Positions 51,676 through 63,253 of a DNA stretch of 64,000 nucleotides are shown piece by piece. The notes under the pieces were generated by a model, which was not told the DNA's origin, made no database searches, and saw only the letters and a list, made by a program, of their open reading frames with translations. The stretch is taken from assembly GCA_963774265.1 (NCBI GenBank), contig CAVZDU010000003.1, positions 32,001 through 96,000 on the forward strand, in the 5' to 3' direction. The DNA comes from an uncultured Chloroflexia bacterium. GTDB lineage: Bacteria; Chloroflexota; Anaerolineae; CG2-30-64-16. Made by a program: the position numbers and the translations under genes. Every line of letters starts with the position of its first letter. Positions within the stretch are counted from its first letter, which is position 1.

Positions 51676-52368
51676 CTACGCCTCCGCGCTCGCGGCATCC
51701 TCGCCCGTCAGCCCTTCCCGCACCGCATAGAGCGCGGCCTGGGTGCGGCTGGCGAGGTGCAGCTTGCCGAGGATGCGGCTCACATGTGTGCGCACGGTCG
51801 GCTCGCTGATCGCGATCCGGTCGGCAATTTCCCGATTACTCAGTCCCTGCGCAATCAGCCGCAGCACCGTCATCTCACGCTCAGTGAGCGCCTCAGGTGC
51901 GGGCTGTCGCTCGACCGGGCGCGCGATCTCCTGCAACAGCTTGCGGGCAACGGTCGGATGGAGCGATGGCTCGCCGCGATGCACCTGGCGGATGGCCCGC
52001 ACGAGCTCTTCAGGCGAGGAGTCCTTTAGCAGGTAACCCGAGGCCCCGGCTTTGATCGCGGGGAACACCTTGCTGTCCGCGGCAAAGCTGGTCAGCACGA
52101 GGATGCGTGACTTCGGCTGGCGGCCGGTGATCTGGCGCGTCGCTTCGATGCCGTCCATACCAGGCATCAGCAGGTCCATCAGGATGACGTCAGGGCGGGT
52201 CTCCTCCGCGCGCAGCAATGCTTCCTGCCCGTTACCGGCTTCCCCCACCACTTCGAAGCCACCGGCTTCAGAGAGCAGGGCGCGAATACCCTTGCGCACG
52301 ATGGCATGATCATCCACAATCAAAACACGAACACGCGTTTCTGAGGTTTGCCGGTTTTCATCTGTCAC
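51676..52368 (-). CDS. NarL/FixJ family response regulator
   Basis: IVDDHAIVR, PDVILMD, LTEREMTVLRLIAQGLSNREIA...TVRTHVSRILGKL. Confidence 0.93.
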   Translation of the reverse strand: MTDENRQTSETRVRVLIVDDHAIVRKGIRALLSEAGGFEVVGEAGNGQEALLRAEETRPDVILMDLLMPGMDGIEATRQITGRQPKSRILVLTSFAADSKVFPAIKAGASGYLLKDSSPEELVRAIRQVHRGEPSLHPTVARKLLQEIARPVERQPAPEALTEREMTVLRLIAQGLSNREIADRIAISEPTVRTHVSRILGKLHLASRTQAALYAVREGLTGEDAASAEA

Positions 52369-53607
52369 GGCGCCACCTCAACGGTCACCCGTGTGCCCTC
52401 GCCCAGCGCGCTTTCGTACGTCAGTTTCCCTCCGACGCGCGCGGCGCGTTCTGCGATAGTGCGCAAGCCGCCCCGTCTTTCGGTGGGCACAGCACCCGGG
52501 TCGAACCCCACGCCGTCATCCTGCACTTCCAGGAGGACAGTGGCGACGGTGAAGTGCAGATGCACGGTTACATGCCGGGCGGCCGCGTGTTTGCGCACGT
52601 TATTGAGCGCCTCCTGGGCAATCCAGAAGAGCTCACTTTCGATTGCGATGGGCAACCGTCGCTCCTCCTCGATGCGGAACTCAGTTTGCAGGCCGGCGCG
52701 GTTCTCGACGGCCGCCAGGCGCGCCTGCAACGCGGCCACCAGCCCTTCCCTCTCCAACACCGGCGGGTGCAACTGGAAGATGAGCAGCCGCATGTCGCGC
52801 ATGCCCTCCTGCGCGGTCTCCTGCAACTCCTGCAGATAGCCGGCCGTGACATCTTGCTTGCCGGCTGCCAGCGCCAACGCCGCGGCGTTGGCGTACAGGG
52901 TCACGCTGTACAGCGACTGTGTGACCGAATCATGCAGCTCACGGGCCAACCGTTGTCGTTCCCCCAGCACCGCCAATTGCTCTGCCTGCTGTTGGAGCCG
53001 GGCGTGCTCGATGGCCATGGCGGCCTGATTGGCGAAAACGGACATGACGGGGACGTCTTCCTCGGAGAAACCACCCGCCTTGTTCACGACATCCAGTACG
53101 CCGATGACACCACCGTTGACGTGCAGGGGCACCGCGAGCAGCGCGGTGAGATCCGAGGGCCACTGGTACACCTGGGCGCTGCTCGAAGAGGGCCGGGTCA
53201 TTCAGCACCACCGGCTCACCCTGGCGCACGACCTGACCCGCCAACGAGCCGTCCACAGGTATGGGTGTGACGGCCGCCAACGGTTTGCCCAAGCGGTGCT
53301 TGACCTCCAGCCAGGCCTGATCGGTCAGCAGCAGGACCGCGCTGCCGGTCGCGCCGATCAAGCCCTGGGCTTCGGTGCAGACGATGTCCAGCACTTGTTC
53401 CAGAACCGTCTTCTGGAGCAGGCTCACCAGAACGCGGTTGAAGCTCTCGCTCTCGGCCAGCCGCCTCTGCAGCTCGCCATACAGTTCGGTGTTCTGGCGT
53501 GCCAGCGCCGCGGTCGCTCGCTCCCGTTCGGCAATCTCGTCCTGCAGCGAATCCAGGATTTGCTGAAGCTGTGGGATGTCTATTGGATCAGGAATCTGGT
53601 AGGCCAT
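52365..53607 (-). CDS. Soluble GAF-domain HisKA_3 sensor kinase (frameshift)
   Basis: GAF (VPLHVNGGVIGVLDVVNK), ERQRLARELHDSVTQ, QEALNNVRKHA, DDGVGFD; no TM. Confidence 0.9.
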
Positions 53608-53776
53608 CGTGCCATCTCCTGCGCCATTATTATACACGATCCTGCCTATTCTACAATTCACGAACGCCACAGGCAACACGCAAGCACGGACCTGTCACAA
53701 GTGATTTGGGTAACCGAATATGGCTCCGGACTTTGGGGACAGAGGGAGAAGAGGTATGTTACGTGGTGTTCATTCC

Positions 53777-54259
53777 CTAAGATTCAGATGCGACCAGCCC
53801 CGCAGGTCCGATTTCTTGTGCGAGCGCGGCGACAAGTAGGTCCAGGCGGGCCGCGACCGGAGGCGTCAGTTCTGTGCCCCAACTCAGCGACTGGGGCTCC
53901 ATGCCCAAAAGCACGACGCGGGGGGGCAGCGTGCCCCGCAGGGCACTCACTGCCAGCAACTCCCGCAGGCCGACCTGATGCATTGACATCTTGAGAGCCA
54001 ACGCTGCCTGGATCTGGTCCCCTTCGAGGCGCATCAGGTCGCCCGGTGCACCGCCCACCTTCACCGCATCTGCGATGATGAGATCGGTCACACCTTCCAG
54101 CCGGTACAGCAGGTCGAGGCCCAGCGTACCGCCATCGAGCGCCTCAACCTCCGATCCGAGCCGGTAGGTTTCGGCAAGGCGCGCGACAGCGCGTACGCCC
54201 AGACCCTCGTCACTCAGCAGGATGTTGCCCAGGCCAAGAACGAGGATGCGTTGGGTCAT
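53777..54259 (-). CDS. Hydrogenase maturation protease (HyaD/HybD family)
   Basis: LGLGNILLSDEGLGV, DGGTLG, SMHQVG. Confidence 0.92.
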   Translation of the reverse strand: MTQRILVLGLGNILLSDEGLGVRAVARLAETYRLGSEVEALDGGTLGLDLLYRLEGVTDLIIADAVKVGGAPGDLMRLEGDQIQAALALKMSMHQVGLRELLAVSALRGTLPPRVVLLGMEPQSLSWGTELTPPVAARLDLLVAALAQEIGPAGLVASES

Positions 54260-56208
54260 GGCACAACCTGAATGCGGGTCACCTCACTCCCAGTCGCGTC
54301 GACGATATGTACTGCACAGGCCATGCACGGGTCGAAGGAGTGGACTGTGCGCAGAATCTCGACCGGTTGCTCCGGATTGTGCACGGGCGTGCCGATGAGC
54401 GACTGCTCCCAGGGTCCTCGCTGCCCGGCTGAATCGCGCGGTGAGCCGTTCCATACCGTCGCTACCACCGCCTGGTAGTTTTCGATCGCGCCGTTCTTGA
54501 TCCGTATCCAGTGGCCCAGCGCACCGCGAGGGGCTTCAGTTGCGCCCCAACCTGTGGCCTCTGTGGGCCAGGTGGACGGTAGCCACTTGCTGTTGTTGTG
54601 GATCGCAAGGTTGCCGGTATTCATGTTGGTTTCGAGTTGGCTGATCCACGACGAGAGCTGTTCGGCCAGAACGACCGTCTCCACGCCACGCGCGGCGACG
54701 CGACCGATCGTGGAAAACAGGCTTGGGGCGGGCAGCCCCAGCTTGGACAGCAATCCGTCAACGAGGTCGCGCACACGCCCATGCCCTGCCGCGTAGGCGA
54801 CAGCCATGCGCGCCAGCGGTCCGACTTCCATGGGCATCTCGTTGTAACGCGGCGCCTTCAGCCACGAATACTTCCCTTCGATGTCAAGGTAGTCGTAGTC
54901 CTGCTGCGGGCCGGTGTAGTTCGGCTGGGTTTGGCCCTGCGATGGGTGGAGGCCGACACCGTCACCCCCCGCATAACTGTACCACGAGCGGGTCACGTAC
55001 TCCTTGATCTGGTTCTGATCTAGCGGCTGCGGCGGAGCGGCTAGGTTGTTGCCCGTGACAATGCCGCGCGGCAGGTAAAACGAACCTACGCTGCCTGAAG
55101 CATCCTGCGGAAAGTCGCCGAACGACAGGTAGTTGCCCGCGGTCCCGCCCAGGCTTGCCCACTCCGGGTACAACGAGGCGATGAGTTGCAGATCGGGGTA
55201 GTAGACACGCGATACGAAGTCCAGTGCATAGGCCGCGTGGCTTTTGAGCTGGCTGATGCGGACGGCGTTGATGGCCGCGTCGCTGCTTGGGTCCACTGGG
55301 ATCGCCATCCCGCCCACCAGGTAGGTTTGTGGATGGGGGTTCTTGCCGCCCAGGATGGCGTGGGTCTTGATGACCTCACGCTGCCAGTCTAGGGCTTCGA
55401 GGTAGTGCGCCACAGCCAGCAGGTTGCCTTCCGGAGGCAGCTTGTACGCGGGATGTCCCCAGTAGGCGTTCGAAAAGATGCCGAGCTGGCCGCTATCGAC
55501 GAATGACCGCAACCGGGCCTGCACGGAAGCGAAGTAATCGTGGCTGTTGTTATGCCAATCGGAGATGGATCGCTGCAGGTTGCTGGTGGCTGCCGGGTCA
55601 GCCGAGAGCGCACTGACCACGTCCACCCAATCGAGCGCATGCAGGTGGTAGAAGTGGATCACGTGATCCTGGACGAACTGCATGCCTTCCAGAAGGTTGC
55701 GGATGATACGGGCGTTATCAGGTACAGTGATGCCTAAGGCATCTTCAACTGCTCGCACGGAGCAGATAGCATGCACCGTCGTTCAGACGCCGCAGATGCG
55801 CTGGGTGAAGGCCCAGGCATCGCGAGGATCCCTCCCTTTCATCACCAGTTCCATACCGCGAAAACTGGTCCCCGAGCTCCAGGCGTCAGTCACCTGGCCG
55901 CCCTGCACCTGCACCTCGATGCGCAGGTGACCCTCGATGCGCGTGATGGGATCGATCACCAGCCGCTGGGCGCTGCTTGGAGTTGGCGATGGTGTCGGGC
56001 TGGCCGTCGCGATTGGCGCCGCGGCAGTTGCGCTCGGTGTCCCTGTCGGAGTAACCGTGGCCGGGGTTGCCGTGGCTCCGGGTTGCGGTGTGCTGGTCTT
56101 GGTCGGCGTGCTTGTTCGCGTTGGAGTCTGAGTCGGCCTGCGCTGCGCTGCATCATCATCACTGGAGTCTCCATCACCGGAGACCAATGGCATATATATC
56201 TTAGGCAT
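54256..56208 (-). CDS. [NiFe]-hydrogenase large subunit, 650 aa if the in-frame TGA (55783-55785) is decoded; candidate selenoprotein
   Basis: [19 protein letters not shown][TGA][43 protein letters not shown] plus cleavable tail; the two track ORFs share one frame. Confidence 0.9.
55739..55774 (-). promoter_or_regulatory. Putative bacterial SECIS element
   Basis: CUGCUC-CGUGC-GAGCAG stem-loop at +18..+34 after UGA, with GCAU/AUGC lower stem. Confidence 0.6.
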
Positions 56209-56224
56209 TATGATACTCCTGTCC

Positions 56225-57181
56225 TTAGTCGTCTGAGGATCCGCTGTACAGAGGGGTTAGCTTGTCCCAGAAGCGCGAGGTCGCGCAGCCGATGCAGCCA
56301 TGACCGGCGGCGATGGGCCAGCTCGTCGCGTCGTTCCATTGAACTGAAGGGCAGTTGTGCTTCGTCTCGGGTCCTTTACAGCCCATCTTTTTCAGACACC
56401 ACCCGTTGCGATGGCCCTCATCGCCCCACGCGAGCACGAAGCGCCCCTCTCCATAGTGTTCCTTGCGCTCGCATTTTTCGTGGATCTCTTTGTCATAAGC
56501 GAACTTGGGCCGGCCCTCGCCATCTGTCTCGGGCCAGCTGCCATACGTCAGATACTGCACCAGGATGGAGCTCAGATTGACGACGTTAATGGGGCAGCCC
56601 GGCATGTTGATGAGGTTGCGTACATCGGGGAACGCGCCTTTGACACCGGTGGCCGCGGTTGGGTTAGGGGTGGCCGCCGGCCAGCCGCCCTCCCACGCAC
56701 ACGCGCCGACGGCGATGGTCTTCATGGCAGAACCGCACACTCGCTGCACGATACTTCGGGCAGAGCGGCCGCCAATGGCACAGTAGAAGCCGTTGAGGGC
56801 AGTCGGGATGGCGCCCTCGATGACGGCGACATAGCCTCCCGGATACTTGGTCAGTGTATCCTGCAGCGACCTCTCGGCTAGGTGCCCAGCGGACGCCATG
56901 ATGGTCTCGTGGTAGTCCAACGAGACCAGGTCGAGCAGGATGTTTGTGACGGTTGGATCGCCCGCGCGTAGGAAGGATTCCGTATCGCCGGTGCAGTCCT
57001 GCAGTGCCAGCCACACCATGGGCAACCGCGGTGCCGCAGCCAGTGCGCGCGAGATGCGCGCTGTCTCCGTGGCAGCCACGCCGAGCGTCGCCGCCATGAA
57101 TGAGCAGAATTTTAGGAAGTCACGGCGCGTCACGCCGCGTTGTTCAAGTCGCTCAACTCGACTGAGTTTGAGGCTCGACAT
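56225..57181 (-). CDS. [NiFe]-hydrogenase small subunit, Tat-exported
   Basis: TRRDFLK Tat motif, [29 protein letters not shown]...CIGC; no C-terminal TM. Confidence 0.93.
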
Positions 57182-57403: not shown

Positions 57404-57799
57404 ATGCATGAGTTACCGATCACCGAAGGCATTCTCAAGATCGCGTCGGAGGCGGCGGGGGGACGGCCGATCATGGCCATCCATCTCGTCATCGGCGATC
57501 TGGCTAGCATCGTGGATGATTCGGTGCAGTTCTACTTCGATATTCTCAGCAAGGGCACGTCGGCGGAGGGCGCGGTGCTGGACTTCCTGCGCATTCCGGC
57601 CAGCGTGAGATGCTGGGATTGTGGCCGGCAATTTGAGGCCCGCGCACCGTTGCCTTCCACGTGCCCGCACTGCGGAGGAACAAAGCTCCAAGTGACGGGC
57701 GGCCGCGAGTTGCGAGTGGATAGTATTGAGGTTAGTGATGATGGCGGAGATCCCGATCCAGAAGCGCATCCTGAGCGCGAACGACGAGGTGGCGGCTGA
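57404..57799 (+). CDS. hypA: Hydrogenase Ni metallochaperone HypA
   Basis: MHE N-terminus, CWDC/CPHC, GRELRVDSIEV. Confidence 0.92.
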   Translation: MHELPITEGILKIASEAAGGRPIMAIHLVIGDLASIVDDSVQFYFDILSKGTSAEGAVLDFLRIPASVRCWDCGRQFEARAPLPSTCPHCGGTKLQVTGGRELRVDSIEVSDDGGDPDPEAHPERERRGGG

Positions 57800-58385
57800 G
57801 AACCGCAGTGCCTTTGCCGCACACAGCATCCTGGCGATCAACATCATGGCATCGCCGGGTGCGGGCAAGACCAGCGTTATCCTCGCGACCGCGGAACGGC
57901 TCCCGGTCGCGGTCCGCCTCGCGGTGATCGAGGGCGATCTGGCCTCCAGCATCGACACAGAGAAGGTCCTCGCGGCCGGCATTCCCGCCGTACAGATCAA
58001 CACGGGCGGCAACTGCCACCTGGACGCGCCGATGATCCACTCGGCACTGCCCCAACTCCCGCTCGACAGGGTTGATCTGCTCTTTATCGAGAACGTGGGC
58101 AACCTGGTTTGCCCGGCTGAGTTCGACCTTGGTGCCGGACGTGCGGTCGTCGTTGCCAGCGTCCCCGAGGGCCACGACAAGCCCTACAAGTATCCCGGCA
58201 TGTTCGCCGCGGCAGACGCCGTGGTGCTCAACAAGTTCGACCTGGCCGTTTACTTCGATTTCGATCTGGAGTACTTCCGTCGTGGCGTGGCGATGATTAA
58301 TCCCGATGCGCCGGTGCTAGTTGTCTCATGCCGGACGGGGGAGGGGCTGGACGCGTGGGTGGGTTGGCTTACGAACGGATTATAG
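57741..58385 (+). CDS. hypB: Hydrogenase Ni-incorporation GTPase HypB
   Basis: SPGAGKTS, NTGGNCHLDA, ENVGNLVCPA. Confidence 0.94.
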   Translation: MAEIPIQKRILSANDEVAAENRSAFAAHSILAINIMASPGAGKTSVILATAERLPVAVRLAVIEGDLASSIDTEKVLAAGIPAVQINTGGNCHLDAPMIHSALPQLPLDRVDLLFIENVGNLVCPAEFDLGAGRAVVVASVPEGHDKPYKYPGMFAAADAVVLNKFDLAVYFDFDLEYFRRGVAMINPDAPVLVVSCRTGEGLDAWVGWLTNGL

Positions 58386-58386
58386 G

Positions 58387-60774
58387 TTGAAGATTGAAAA
58401 TTCCCGACTACGCGTCGAAATTCATGGCGCGGTGCAGGGGGTTGGTTTCCGGCCGTTCGTGTACCGTCTGGCGACGGAATTGGCGTTGACTGGGTGGGTG
58501 ATCAACGACACGCGCGGGGTGTTCATCGAAGTCGAAGGGTCCCTCGAGATTGCCGAACGGTTCCTGGCGCGGCTGGTCGACGAGGTCCCGCCGCGGGCCA
58601 TCGTTCAGTCGCTTGACCACGCGTGGTTACCTGTGGCGGGGTACGACCACTTTGAGATCCGGCACAGCGACGACCAAGGTGCAAAGACAGCCCCGATCCT
58701 GCCCGACATCGCCACTTGCCCCGACTGCCTTAGCGAGGTCCTAAACCCCACGGGCCGCCGCCATGCCTACGTGTTCACCAACTGCACCAACTGTGGCCCG
58801 CGCTTCACGATCATCCAGGCGCTTCCCTATGACCGGCCCAATACGACGATGCGACGCTTTGTGATGTGTCCACAGTGTCAGGCTGAGTATGAGGACCCGC
58901 TCGACCGGCGATTCCACGCTCAGCCGAACGCGTGCCCGGCGTGTGGTCCACGGCTCGCGTGGTGGGGAGCAGGACGAGCGCACGACAGTGGATTGCATAA
59001 CCACAAAGATACCCAGGGGCACAAAGGCACACAAAAACGCGATGGGGTTGACGACAAGGAGATGTATGGGGCGCGAGCGTTGGCGGCAGCGGTGGCCGCG
59101 CTGCGGGCCGGTCGGATCGTCGCGGTGAAGGGCCTGGGCGGGTTCCACCTGATGGCTGACGCGCGCGATGATGGGGCAGTGACCCTCTTGCGTGAGCGGA
59201 AGCCGCGGCGCGACAGGCCGTTCGCGATCATGGCGCCCGACCTCGCCTGGGTCAGGGTGCACTGCGAAGTCACCCCCGAAGCGGAGGCCGCGTTGACATC
59301 CGCGGAGTCGCCCATCGTCCTGTTGGGTAAGCGCGGTGACGGTGGTGTGGCCGAGGATGTCGCGCCCGATAATCCGATCCTGGGCGTGATGCTGCCGTAC
59401 ACGCCGCTGCACCACCTGCTGATGGCTGAGCTGGGCTTCCCCATGATTGCGACTAGCGGCAACGTCGCGGATGAGCCGATCTGCACGGACGAGGTCGAGG
59501 CCGCCCAGCGCCTGGGCCACATCACCGACCTTTTCCTGGTCCACGACCGGCCCATCGAGCGCCACGTCGATGATAGTGTCGCCTGGGTGGTGCGGGGCGT
59601 CCCGAGGCTGCTGCGTCGAGCGCGCGGTTATGCGCCCCTGCCCCTGCTGCTTAAGGAGGAGGTCCCACCCATCCTGGCGGTCGGTCCACACCTGAAGAAC
59701 ACGGTAAGTCTCAGCGTGGGGAAACAGGTCTTTATCAGCCAGCACATCGGCGACCTGGAGACGCCCGAAGCCATGGTCGCGTTCGAGCGCGTCATCGCCG
59801 ACTTCCTGCGCTTGTACGAGGCGACGCCCGCAGCCATCGCCCACGACCTGCACCCCGATTATGCGTCCACACAGTGGGCGCGCGAGCAGGAGAGGCGCCT
59901 GATCCCGGTTCAGCATCACCACGCGCACCTGGCCGCGTGCCTGGCCGAAAACCAGGTCGACTGCCCGGCGTTGGGTGTCACGTGGGATGGCACGGGCTAC
60001 GGCACGGACGGGACGATCTGGGGCGGGGAGTTCCTGCTGGGAGATGCGAGCGGCTACGAGCGGGTCGCACATCTGCGGCCGTTCCGCTTGCCGGGAGGCG
60101 ACGCAGCGGTGCACGAACCCCGGCGCGTGGCACTGGCACTGCTGTTCGAGTTATACGGCGACAGCGCGTTCGAGATGGATCTGGCGCCGGTGGCCGCGTT
60201 CAGCGAGGCGAAGAGGGGCCTGTTGGGCCAGATGCTCGGCCGCGGTGTGAATGCGCCCGTCACCACCAGTATGGGCCGGCTCTTTGACGGGGTGGCCAGC
60301 CTGGCGGGGCTGCATCAGACTGTCAGCTTCGAAGGGCAGGCTGCGATGCGGCTCGAATTCGTCGCGGACGTCACCGAACGGGGTGTGTATCCGTTAACGC
60401 GAAATGTACAGACGTTGCCCGGCGTAGAGACGTTGCATGCAACGTCTCTACGTGATGGTGCGCACGTGCTCGACTGGGGACCCCTGGTCGAGAGGGTGGT
60501 CGAAGACGCACGTGCCGGTGTTCCTGCCAGCACCATTGCCGCCCGCTTCCACAATGGCCTGGTTCATGCCATCGTAGATGTCGCACGTGCAGCCGACCAA
60601 CCGCGCGTCGCACTGACCGGCGGCTGCTTCCAGAACCGTTTGCTGACCGAGCGTGCGGCGGATGCGCTCGAAGCGGCGGGATTCGAAGTGCTGCTCCATC
60701 GACAGATTCCACCCAACGACGGCTGTGTCAGCCTGGGGCAGGTGGCAGTGGCCGCAACCCAAATGAGAGGTTAG
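58387..60774 (+). CDS. hypF: Carbamoyltransferase HypF
   Basis: VQGVGFRPFVY, two zinc fingers, RRFHAQP, QHHHAH, PPNDG; TTG start inferred. Confidence 0.94.
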   Translation: MKIENSRLRVEIHGAVQGVGFRPFVYRLATELALTGWVINDTRGVFIEVEGSLEIAERFLARLVDEVPPRAIVQSLDHAWLPVAGYDHFEIRHSDDQGAKTAPILPDIATCPDCLSEVLNPTGRRHAYVFTNCTNCGPRFTIIQALPYDRPNTTMRRFVMCPQCQAEYEDPLDRRFHAQPNACPACGPRLAWWGAGRAHDSGLHNHKDTQGHKGTQKRDGVDDKEMYGARALAAAVAALRAGRIVAVKGLGGFHLMADARDDGAVTLLRERKPRRDRPFAIMAPDLAWVRVHCEVTPEAEAALTSAESPIVLLGKRGDGGVAEDVAPDNPILGVMLPYTPLHHLLMAELGFPMIATSGNVADEPICTDEVEAAQRLGHITDLFLVHDRPIERHVDDSVAWVVRGVPRLLRRARGYAPLPLLLKEEVPPILAVGPHLKNTVSLSVGKQVFISQHIGDLETPEAMVAFERVIADFLRLYEATPAAIAHDLHPDYASTQWAREQERRLIPVQHHHAHLAACLAENQVDCPALGVTWDGTGYGTDGTIWGGEFLLGDASGYERVAHLRPFRLPGGDAAVHEPRRVALALLFELYGDSAFEMDLAPVAAFSEAKRGLLGQMLGRGVNAPVTTSMGRLFDGVASLAGLHQTVSFEGQAAMRLEFVADVTERGVYPLTRNVQTLPGVETLHATSLRDGAHVLDWGPLVERVVEDARAGVPASTIAARFHNGLVHAIVDVARAADQPRVALTGGCFQNRLLTERAADALEAAGFEVLLHRQIPPNDGCVSLGQVAVAATQMRG
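60424..60451. repeat. GTAG-type REP-like perfect palindrome inside hypF
   Basis: GTAGAGACGTTGCATGCAACGTCTCTAC, 28-bp perfect palindrome. Confidence 0.8.
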
Positions 60775-60777
60775 TCT

Positions 60778-61035
60778 ATGTGTCTGGGAGTCCCCGGCAG
60801 AATCCTGAGCATCGAGCCGAACCCGTTCGGAATGACGATGGGCAAGGTGAGTTTTGGCGGCGTGGCGAAAGAAGTGTGCCTGGCCTATACGCCCGAGGTG
60901 GAGGTCGGCGACTATGTCATCGTCCACGCCGGCTTCGCGCTCAACAAGCTAAACGAGCAGGAGGCCGAGGACGTGTTCGCACTGTTGGCTGAGATGAGCG
61001 AGGTCGATGAGCTGACACAGGGCGACGGTCTTTAG
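60778..61035 (+). CDS. hypC: HypC chaperone
   Basis: [19 protein letters not shown]. Confidence 0.95.
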
Positions 61036-61049
61036 ACGCAGAGGTAACT

Positions 61050-62162
61050 ATGCGCTTTGTGGATGAGTACCGGAGGGAGGAGGACGCGCAGATCCTGCTG
61101 CGCGCTATCGAGCGTAAGGTCACGAAGCAGTGGACAAGCGCAGCAGTCCGGTGGACGATCATGGAGATCTGCGGCGGACAGACGCACACGCTGATCAAAT
61201 CGGGCATCGACAGGATGTTGCCCGACGCCATCACACTTGTGCATGGCCCCGGCTGCCCCATATGCGTCACGCCATTGGAGATGATTGACCGGGCGCTGGC
61301 CATCGCGCGACAGCCCGGGGTCATCTTCACCTCGTTCGGTGATATGCTGCGGGTGCCTGGCTCGACGACCGATCTGCTCAGCGTGAAAGCACAGGGCGGC
61401 GACGTGCGGATGGTCTACTCGCCACTCGACGCGGTCAGGCTGGCACTGAGGCACCCCGACCGGCAGGTCGTCTTTTTCGCAGTAGGCTTCGAGACCACGG
61501 CGCCGGGCAACGCGATGGCGGTGCACGCGGCACGCCAGCTCGGGCTGACCAATTTCTCCGCCCTTGTCTCGCATGTCCTGGTGCCCCCTGCGATGGAGGC
61601 CATCCTGGGTGCACCGGGCAATCAGGTGCAGGCATTTTTGGCTGCAGGTCATGTGTGCACGGTCATGGGCTATTGGGAGTACGAGCCTATCGCGGCAACC
61701 TACGGTGTTCCCATCGTTGTCACCGGATTTGAGCCGCTTGACCTGCTGCAGGGCATCTACATGGCGGTGGACGCGCTCGAAGCCGGCCGCAGCAGCGTGG
61801 AGAATCAATACAGCCGGCTGGTGACGCGCGAGGGCAACCTGCCTGCGCAGCGCATCCTGGCTGAGGTATTCGAGACCACCGACCGGCAGTGGCGCGGCAT
61901 CGGGCTTATCCCCCTGAGCGGTTATCGCCTGCGCCCTGAGTATGCCGAGTTCGACGCGGAGCAGCGCTTTGGCGTCGGTGAGATCCGCGCCGCAGAATCC
62001 TCCATCTGCATCGCCGGTGCGATCCTTCGCGGTCACAAGAAGCCGCACGACTGTCCCGCGTTCGGGACGGCCTGCACGCCCGAACACCCGTTGGGCGCGC
62101 CCATGGTTTCGAGCGAAGGCGCGTGCGCCGCCTATTACACTTACAGATTGGCTCAGCCGTGA
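61050..62162 (+). CDS. hypD: HypD
   Basis: [38 protein letters not shown]. Confidence 0.95.
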
Positions 62163-63253
62163 AAGAGTCTCAACTGGGCGACCACATCGAGCCGCCCTCA
62201 CAGTCCGCAGCCTTCAACCTGACCTGCCCCATCCCCATCAGCGAATACCCCACCGTCACACTTGCGCACGGTGGCGGCGGACGTCTGACACAGATGCTCA
62301 TCGAGCGAATGTTCCTGCCCGCGCTCCGGAATGACCAGTTGGAGGTCATGCACGACGGCGCGATTCTCAAGGTGGACGCATCGCGCCTGGCGTTCAGCAC
62401 CGATTCGTTCGTGATCAGCCCTCGCTTTTTCCCGGGCGGCGACATCGGTTCGCTGGCGGTCCACGGCACGGTCAACGATCTGGCGATGTGCGGCGCGCAG
62501 CCGTTGGTGCTCTCGGCGGCGTTTATCCTCGAAGAGGGGCTGCCGATGGGCGAGTTGTGGCGGATCATCACCTCGCTGGCTGAGGCAGCGAGAGCAGTGG
62601 GCGTACCTGTGGCGACGGGAGACACGAAGGTGGTGGACCGCGGCAAGGGCGATGGGATCTACATCAACACGACAGGAATTGGGGTCATCCCTGACGGCGT
62701 GCATATTTCACCCTTGCGCGCAGCGCCGGGGGATGTGGTCATCGTCAGCGGTCGCATCGCGGAGCATGGCATGGCGATCATGTCGGTGCGCGAGGGGCTG
62801 GCATTTGAGACGGAGTTAGTCAGCGACTCCGCGCCCCTCAACATGCTCGTTGCGGAGGTGCTCAACGCGGGAGGCGAGCACGTCCATGTCTTGCGAGATC
62901 CGACGCGCGGCGGGGTTTCCAGCGCGCTAAACGAGATCGCACAATCGGCAAGGGTGGGCATCCGCCTGCAAGAAACGTGCATCCCCCTGGGGGACGCGGT
63001 GCGCGGCGCCTGTGAGATCCTGGGACTCGATCCGCTCTACGTGGCGAACGAGGGTAAGGCGATCGTGATCGTCGGGCGGCCTGCAGCCGAGTCCGTTCTC
63101 GCCGCGATGCGGACGCATCCCCTGGGCCGGGATGCTGTCGTCATCGGCGAGGTGGTGGCGGACCATCCGAGGCGGGTGGTGATGCGCTCGCGGATCGGGG
63201 GTCAGCGGATCGTGGAGATGCTGAGCGGGGAGCAGTTACCGCGGATTTGCTGA
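62159..63253 (+). CDS. hypE: HypE
   Basis: [23 protein letters not shown]-terminal LPRIC. Confidence 0.95.

Follow-up and report, generated by a model that had tools for sequence, protein, structure and literature searches.

In a 64,000-nucleotide (nt) stretch of genomic DNA from an uncultured Chloroflexia bacterium (contig CAVZDU010000003.1, positions 32,001 to 96,000, here called the window), the gene for the large subunit of a Group 1 [NiFe] hydrogenase carries a single in-frame TGA at the second cysteine (Cys) position of its N-terminal metal-binding motif, L1. On the sequence evidence, we consider this TGA very likely to be a genuine selenocysteine (Sec) codon, because it is conserved in relatives, is followed by a hairpin resembling a bacterial Sec insertion sequence (SECIS), lies in a genome with Sec machinery and is not explained by global recoding. 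An initial annotation of the window had already favoured a Sec codon over a frame break or pseudogene, and homologous TGA codons, a covarying hairpin, the Sec machinery and intact partner genes all bear this out. From this we infer selenium incorporation, metal ligation and any catalytic consequence.

A TGA codon at a predicted bridging-ligand position

The features at the centre of the analysis are as follows.

54256..56208, minus strand: [NiFe(Se)] hydrogenase large subunit, 650 codons plus TGA stop, predicted Sec at codon 142 (translation)
55783..55785, minus strand: codon 142, a UGA interpreted as Sec; occupies the place of the second L1 Cys, which corresponds to a Ni-Fe bridging ligand (frame reading and alignment)
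55771..55800, minus strand: L1 motif, R137-I-C139-G-V-U142-T-T-V-H146 (translation)
54307..54333, minus strand: C-terminal motif, D626-P-C628-M-A-C631-A-V-H634, then a 16-residue tail (translation)
55749..55765, minus strand: SECIS-like hairpin, 6-base-pair (bp) stem, 5-nt loop (minimum-free-energy fold and covariation)

The minus-strand codons of L1 read CGC ATC TGC GGC GTC TGA ACG ACG GTG CAT (55800-55771), with the TGA at 55783-55785 as codon 142 of the 650-codon gene. A plain list of open reading frames (ORFs) splits this gene into pieces of 141 and 506 amino acids. However, the frame running from the ATG at 56208 to 54256 holds only two stops, the TGA of codon 142 and the terminal TGA of codon 651, so that ORFs 55783-56208 and 54256-55776 form one gene with a single in-frame interruption. 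The ATG is preceded by a Shine-Dalgarno-like GGACAGGAG. The initial annotation was therefore accurate in placing an in-frame TGA at the second Cys of the RxCGxC motif, residue 142, and in assigning the ORFs on either side to one frame. It was also right that the DPCMAC motif keeps both of its cysteines, which are C628 and C631 in the translation.

An ungapped alignment with the Desulfovibrio gigas enzyme (1frv_B, 2frv_L) sets U142 against Cys68 and C139 against Cys65. In the D. gigas structure, Cys68 is reported to be one of the two thiolates that bridge Ni and Fe (Volbeda 1995). Two of the four hydrogenase ligands are terminal and two bridging; in Escherichia coli Hyd-1, C576 is terminal and C579 bridging (Evans et al. 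2021, PMC8020662; this paper and Takano et al. 2026, PMC13582414, are cited throughout from excerpts of their text).

Both motifs of Group 1 large subunits, RxCGxCxxxH (with Sec for the second Cys) and DPCxxCxxH, are present. The closest solved relatives of the protein are the membrane-bound Allochromatium vinosum enzyme (3myr_B, 691 bits) and Salmonella Hyd-5 (4c3o_A, 635 bits), followed by E. coli Hyd-1 (about 604 bits), the D. fructosovorans enzyme (568) and Hyd-2 (548). Structures of canonical [NiFeSe] enzymes match at about 317 bits and over the C-terminal two thirds only, and the protein falls below the cut-offs of the NCBIfam models for HysA (NF045518, 401.7 against 780 bits) and NiFeSe_hydrog (NF033181, 541.5 against 600 bits). 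Judged by sequence, together with the twin-arginine signal of its small subunit (see below), the enzyme is a Group 1 uptake-type [NiFe] hydrogenase, predicted to be exported by the twin-arginine translocation (Tat) pathway.

The TGA recurs among homologues

We searched the read-through protein in six frames against the genomes of 61 relatives and an evenly drawn set of 401 genomes from the same class, 103 of which matched, and read L1 in every match that covered it. This yielded 117 homologues, leaving out of the class count L022 and L027 (genome G011), a frame-broken copy with five stops, and about ten partial matches that do not extend over L1. Writing U for Sec, and naming each type by the two ligand positions of L1, the homologues divide into four types.

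CxxC: 62 of 117 homologues
CxxU (the type of the window's gene): 18 of 117
UxxU: 37 of 117
UxxC: 0 of 117

The codon equivalent to codon 142 is TGA in 55 of the 117, namely the window's gene and 54 others. Thus the alternation of TGA and TGC in related genomes, which the initial annotation had proposed looking for, is abundant (55 TGA against 62 CxxC). Wherever the C-terminal motif was found, in this sample and among the pattern matches described next, it was Cys/Cys.

In addition, one genome per prokaryote species was scanned with a degenerate DNA pattern for R-I-[C/U]-G-V-U-T-x-V-H, which gives a set that is Sec-only by construction and yields no frequencies. The scan returned at least 120 further TGA stretches, and all 120 matches listed lie in a large-subunit context. 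Among these, GRDPR..W..Q precedes the pattern, DPCxxC..H follows some 485-490 codons later wherever the locus reaches that far, and the frame is open to the C-terminal motif, with one exception that has an extra stop; 56 are CxxU and 64 UxxU. By record title, 55 of the matches listed come from Chloroflexota, 39 from Nitrospirota and 11 from Thermodesulfobacteriota, the remainder being assigned to "delta proteobacteria", Methylomirabilota/Rokubacteria, Nitrospinota, Acidobacteriota and others. By both the class survey and the pattern survey, predicted N-terminal Sec is common in Group 1, not rare.

In the UxxU genes, whose carriers include L008, L010, L012, L013, L033 and L036-L039, both N-terminal Ni ligands are encoded by TGA, 9 nt apart, and the same single hairpin follows. 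A UxxU gene was also seen in a distant paralogous large-subunit family (about 40-47% identical, with the motif RICGVCP..H), where it is the only one among 14 members (L023, G056:C1; the others include L026 and L111). Its hairpin differs, reading GCGCUG-AGUU-CAGCGC and lying about 15 nt after the UGA, and its sequence points to an independent origin of N-terminal Sec.

A covarying hairpin follows the UGA in Sec-type genes

The SECIS-like hairpin begins 17 nt past UGA142 and is composed of a 5' arm CUGCUC (55765-55760), a loop CGUGC (55759-55755) and a 3' arm GAGCAG (55754-55749). It forms within the minimum-free-energy fold (z = -2.39). The spacing rule of bSECISearch is said to be 16-37 nt from UGA to SECIS. 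A 6-bp hairpin with a 5-nt loop, starting 17 nt after the second UGA, was present in every Sec-type orthologue first examined. Counted over distinct sequences, the perfect stem in this fixed register is distributed as follows.

CxxU: 49 of 65 distinct sequences
UxxU: 69 of 89 distinct sequences
Cys-type orthologues: 0 of 49, with at most 5 pairs

In total, 118 of the 154 distinct Sec-type sequences have the perfect stem. Since Cys-type genes encode the identical S-V-R residues at this site and lack the hairpin, it is not a by-product of protein conservation.

Covariation was measured on 150 of the 154 Sec-type segments. Paired cells made up 90.0%, compared with 78.6 +/- 0.8 in shuffled alignments, and none of 500 shuffles reached the observed pairing score. 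Five of the six pairs had changed on both sides, giving 107 compensatory cells; the changing pairs alternate between UA, AU and GC at one position, GC and CG at the next, and CG and UA at two others. When the partner strand was slid by 1-3 columns, pairing fell to 29-58%. These stem variants alter the protein in step, residue 150 being Cys, Ala or Ser where residue 154 is Ala, Gly or Ala, respectively, as would be expected only with selection acting on the RNA. All 150 sequences have G as their second loop nucleotide (column 28), which fits the criterion of a G at the first or second loop position given by Takano et al. (2026, PMC13582414). Rfam gave no match at its gathering score anywhere in the window; two chance-level matches fell near the site, neither of them to a SECIS.

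Sec and Cys forms are interleaved on the tree

A FastTree tree was built from 194 large subunits (82 UxxU, 57 CxxU and 55 CxxC), restricted to rows that had the C-terminal motif, a core free of stops and enough upstream sequence. It requires at least 14 changes between Sec and Cys, and at least 28 among the three states, although the direction and rates of change cannot be read from it, as the tree is unrooted and half of its rows were chosen for Sec. L005 and L006, Cys-type genes from the same family, group with the window's gene (support 99). The enclosing clade of nine rows comprises six CxxU and three CxxC genes, and its Cys-type members have lost the hairpin.

Selenocysteine machinery and the genetic code

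Outside the window, the source genome carries SelA, SelB, SelD and tRNA-Sec, so that the search proposed in the initial annotation for selA, selB, selD and a tRNA-Sec found all four, selA across two frames.

C1:1423808-1424886: selA, with a frame change at a GGGGG run
C1:464620-465552: selD, whose known Sec position, in GUASK, is an in-frame TGA

The downstream selA frame restores the conserved GGGSLPG-type C-terminus. The frame change is likely to be a homopolymer indel in the assembly and not the mark of a dead gene, though a real defect, which would bear on the integrity of the Sec pathway, is possible; together with a split GAF-domain histidine kinase in the window (see below), the break suggests homopolymer indels in the assembly rather than loss of selA. 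A single 96-nt tRNA(UCA) is present; its acceptor stem spans 8 bp and its T stem 5 bp, and the discriminator base is G. Under the rule that Takano et al. (2026, PMC13582414) apply, these features assign it to SelC rather than to the Cys-inserting tRNA-ReC. No tRNA of at least 80 nt with a GCA or UCA anticodon and discriminator U is listed in the genome.

The initial annotation stated that TGA is a normal stop elsewhere. This was confirmed for hypD and hypE, and TGA also ends hypA and the large-subunit gene itself, which speaks against global recoding.

Three further long tRNA-like genes were reported by ARAGORN.

C1:1112899-1112990: 92 nt, anticodon CUA, called "tRNA-Pyl(cta)"
C2:588897-588992: 96 nt, anticodon CGU, called "tRNA-Thr(cgt)"
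C7:428841-428926: 86 nt, odd anticodon loop, called "tRNA-?(tg)"

We considered these as allo-tRNAs or recoding tRNAs and set them aside as probable false positives, their stems having several mismatches.

Alternative readings of codon 142 and the most likely mechanism

Several observations weigh against a Sec codon in this gene. Its nearest relatives, L005 (79% identity) and L006 (about 75%), are Cys-type with TGC, so the TGA is not fixed even in a small clade. Among the 154 Sec-type sequences, 36 are without a perfect stem in the fixed register, and some of these, several Nitrospirota among them, seem to use a register shifted by one. The source genome, in 10 contigs, is 84% complete, and its selA has to be read in two frames across the GGGGG run. 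Across the class sample, two genomes with a Sec-type subunit (G188 and G200) gave no SelA match; the other 48 of 50 did, but with SelA present in 354 of the 401 class genomes this co-occurrence is weakly informative. Finally, sequencing reads gave no firm base call at 55783. Thirteen runs were found, with shares of at most 0.19 and no RNA run among them. Contigs from four of these gave fragmentary cover, largely from relatives; one 151-nt contig, from run X2, spans 55656-55806 with two differences.

The thin read cover, the TGC of L005 and L006, and the frame breaks found elsewhere in the assembly (selA at its run of five G, and the histidine kinase at 52365-53679) would fit a TGA that came from faulty base calling or assembly in a gene that is really TGC, or one that arose recently as a nonsense mutation and left a pseudogene yielding a 141-residue fragment. 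We nevertheless think this very improbable. The known breaks are indels, one of them at a homopolymer, whereas here a substitution is followed by some 500 open codons, and all partner genes are intact. The same TGA occurs in 54 other homologues of the class sample and in at least 120 further genomes. Moreover, the window's gene has the perfect hairpin, which 118 of the 154 Sec-type sequences share and none of the 49 Cys-type sequences does, and a one-base error cannot create a hairpin. It is just as improbable, in our judgement, that the UGA is read through as Cys by a SelB-dependent tRNA-ReC, or as some other residue, to give an ordinary all-Cys [NiFe] enzyme. A second tRNA could be absent from an assembly that is 84% complete. 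Against this, the sole long UCA tRNA has the discriminator G and 8/5 architecture of SelC, no candidate of at least 80 nt with a GCA or UCA anticodon and discriminator U is listed, and the SelD of the same genome also has an in-frame UGA at a known Sec position.

With UGA142 as a Sec codon, the reading that we favour, and by analogy with the established Group 1 pathway, from which the following steps are inferred, SelB carrying Sec-tRNA(Sec) would bind the 6-bp hairpin with its CGUGC loop and UGA142 would be recoded to Sec. Read-through would give a full-length precursor of 650 residues, to which the Hyp proteins would supply the Fe(CN)2CO unit and Ni. The adjacent protease would then cut the precursor after His634, removing the C-terminal tail, as is established for Group 1 enzymes, and the matured large subunit would be exported together with the small subunit and its Tat signal. 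In the resulting active site, Ni and Fe would share the U142 selenolate as a bridging ligand, and C139, C628 and C631 would remain Cys ligands.

Relation to known selenium-containing hydrogenases

The initial annotation had proposed a new type of enzyme, with Sec at a bridging position unknown in natural enzymes. This does not hold, as two Group 1 sequences with an N-terminal CXXU were already reported by Baltazar et al. 2011, according to the excerpted text of Takano, Inoue, Aono, Ochi and Mihara (2026, PMC13582414). As described there, Baltazar et al. found two Group 1 sequences and one Group 3 sequence of this kind, in which Sec was predicted to bridge Ni and Fe. The available text of Evans et al. 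(2021, PMC8020662) cites the same review for a 'purported' bridging substitution at C579, in the C-terminal motif, so that the two citing papers, in these excerpts, disagree on the position of the Sec. As reported by Takano et al., the Group 1 CXXU sequences have Sec at the second N-terminal Cys, a predicted Ni-Fe bridge, as does the window's variant. They differ from the present set in number: two Group 1 sequences were reported, whereas here we found 18 CxxU and 37 UxxU among 117 homologues, plus at least 120 genomes.

In the same excerpts, Takano et al. describe 47 Group 4 sequences with an N-terminal CXXU, UXXC or UXXU (about 0.2%), Group 4 being the one group in which such variants have been surveyed in print. 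They set this N-terminal Sec of Group 4 against a "C-terminal localization in Groups 1 and 3" and report UXXU, which they regard as not recognised before, from Group 4 alone. As presented there, the Group 4 enzymes resemble those found here in several ways. CXXU and UXXU both occur, with Sec in the N-terminal motif; the SECIS has a G at the first or second loop position; Sec and Cys types are mixed on the tree; and a single SECIS apparently suffices for the two UGA codons of UXXU genes, which lie 9 nt from each other. However, the Group 4 enzymes are membrane-bound and energy-converting, and Sec is rare among them, whereas the window's enzyme is a predicted Tat-exported Group 1 heterodimer. 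UXXC is described in Group 4 and is found in none of the 117 class homologues, and Sec forms account for near half of those homologues (55/117).

The canonical [NiFeSe] enzymes, HysAB of Desulfovibrio and Desulfomicrobium (Group 1a) and the methanococcal Fru and Vhu, likewise have a Sec Ni ligand encoded by UGA with a SECIS, and the same kind of subunit pair, protease and Hyp maturation system. In these enzymes, however, Sec opens the C-terminal motif and serves as a terminal Ni ligand; the window's protein has Cys628 at that position and is much nearer to standard Group 1 enzymes (691 bits to 3myr_B) than to the HysA type (about 317 bits). A 2026 review of prokaryotic selenoproteomes mentions only UxxC hydrogenases and places [NiFeSe] enzymes exclusively in sulfate reducers and methanogens.

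The only functional guide to the behaviour of a bridging Sec, in the excerpted sources, is the engineered C79U variant of E. coli Hyd-1. According to these parts of Evans et al. (PMC8020662), it had 13% of the native rate of H2 oxidation, the best of four Sec variants, with a lowered Michaelis constant (KM) for H2, and showed almost no activity at 10% O2; the authors judged the terminal position of the C-terminal motif to be special for Sec. C79U places Sec at the same ligand position of a Group 1 enzyme, and as described there such an active site assembles and turns over. Unlike the genes studied here, it is an artificial variant of an O2-tolerant 1d enzyme, made through UAG and EF-Tu; a natural CxxU site may be tuned differently. 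A plausible but speculative view is that, in strict anaerobes, natural enzymes of the CxxU and UxxU types give up O2 tolerance in exchange for H2 affinity or an altered bias.

Our literature searches (Anaerolinea, Thermodesulfovibrio and UXXU hydrogenases), in which part of the matches were left unopened, returned no Group 1 enzyme with N-terminal Sec beyond these papers. Neither the scale of N-terminal Sec in Group 1 nor a Group 1 UxxU type was found in the searchable literature, and no natural N-terminal-Sec Group 1 enzyme that has been purified or measured was apparent there. N-terminal Sec continues to be presented in this literature as exceptional for Group 1. The window's gene therefore seems to belong to the known but obscure CXXU kind, and what seems new is its scale in Group 1 together with the Group 1 UxxU form.

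A possible broader class of N-terminal-Sec hydrogenases

Taking these results together, we see an evenly balanced case for a wider proposal: that N-terminal-Sec Group 1 hydrogenases form a large, uncharacterised class spanning several phyla (Chloroflexota, with Anaerolineae, Nitrospirota, Thermodesulfobacteriota, Methylomirabilota and others) and making up near half of the Anaerolineae orthologues. This class would exist in two forms, CxxU with a selenolate bridge and UxxU with a pair of selenium ligands on a single Ni, specified by UGA codons that lie 9 nt apart and share one SECIS, and would have undergone at least 14 interconversions with the all-Cys form. If this is true, selenium has repeatedly been selected in nature at sites that looked inferior in engineering work, and the accepted division between C-terminal Sec in Groups 1 and 3 and N-terminal Sec in Group 4 is wrong.

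The rationale for [NiFeSe] enzymes, namely higher H2 production and O2 resistance, has so far hung on one terminal ligand of the C-terminal motif. A bridging Sec, and Sec at both N-terminal ligands, would offer chemists a second and a third natural design, and measuring natural CxxU and UxxU enzymes would address the role of selenium in the Ni-Fe bridge. With two UGA codons close together and one hairpin, UxxU genes would likewise allow a clean test, in a natural setting, of whether a single bacterial SECIS is enough for both codons. As gene callers split these genes at the TGA, surveys of hydrogenases in Anaerolineae, Nitrospirota and sulfate reducers may miscount or misclassify them. This under-recognised and widespread group of Group 1 sequences merits biochemical work.

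Operon context and the N-terminal extension

The large-subunit gene lies between genes for a small subunit and a maturation protease, with a divergent hyp cluster.

56225..57181, minus strand: hydrogenase small subunit with twin-arginine signal (Pfam NiFe_hyd_SSU_C and Oxidored_q6; NCBIfam hydA, 370 bits)
53777..54259, minus strand: HyaD/HybD-type maturation endopeptidase (Pfam HycI; NCBIfam hupD, 153 bits, cut-off 151.8)
57404..63253, plus strand: hyp cluster, divergent from the hydrogenase genes (Pfam)
57404-57799, plus strand: hypA (Pfam)
57726-58385, plus strand: hypB (Pfam)
58321-60774, plus strand: hypF (Pfam)
60778-61035, plus strand: hypC (Pfam)
61050-62162, plus strand: hypD (Pfam)
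62123-63253, plus strand: hypE (Pfam)

The small subunit matches TAT_signal_seq at 22.3 bits against a cut-off of 16.7. The small subunit, the protease and hypA, B, F, C, D and E are all present with open frames, and the Pfam and NCBIfam matches agree with the initial annotation in finding these partner genes intact. No cytochrome b or Isp gene was seen beside the hydrogenase operon. An ORF at 57413-58180 on the minus strand was considered as a membrane partner and rejected, as it lies opposite hypA and hypB, has no family match and gives an Arg/Ala/Ser-rich, antisense-like translation.

Downstream of the protease, a GAF-domain histidine kinase (52365-53679, minus strand) is broken into two ORFs that overlap in different frames (52939-53679 and 52365-53201), each encoding part of the GAF domain, and is followed by a response regulator at 51676-52368. 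The split is probably an assembly indel.

The large subunit has an N-terminal extension of about 80 residues (55969-56208, minus strand) ahead of the usual start, an odd feature for a subunit whose export hitch-hikes on the small subunit. The extension is made up of a short conserved head, which in relatives reads MPKGFLPLVSG, MPKIFMPLV, HQVFMPFI or QVFLPLIQG, and a linker rich in Pro, Thr, Ser and Ala that varies from about 10 to 100 residues across relatives. It is limited to a small clade around the window's gene, and was also found in L005, L006, L007, L029, L030, L031, L159, L192 and L225.

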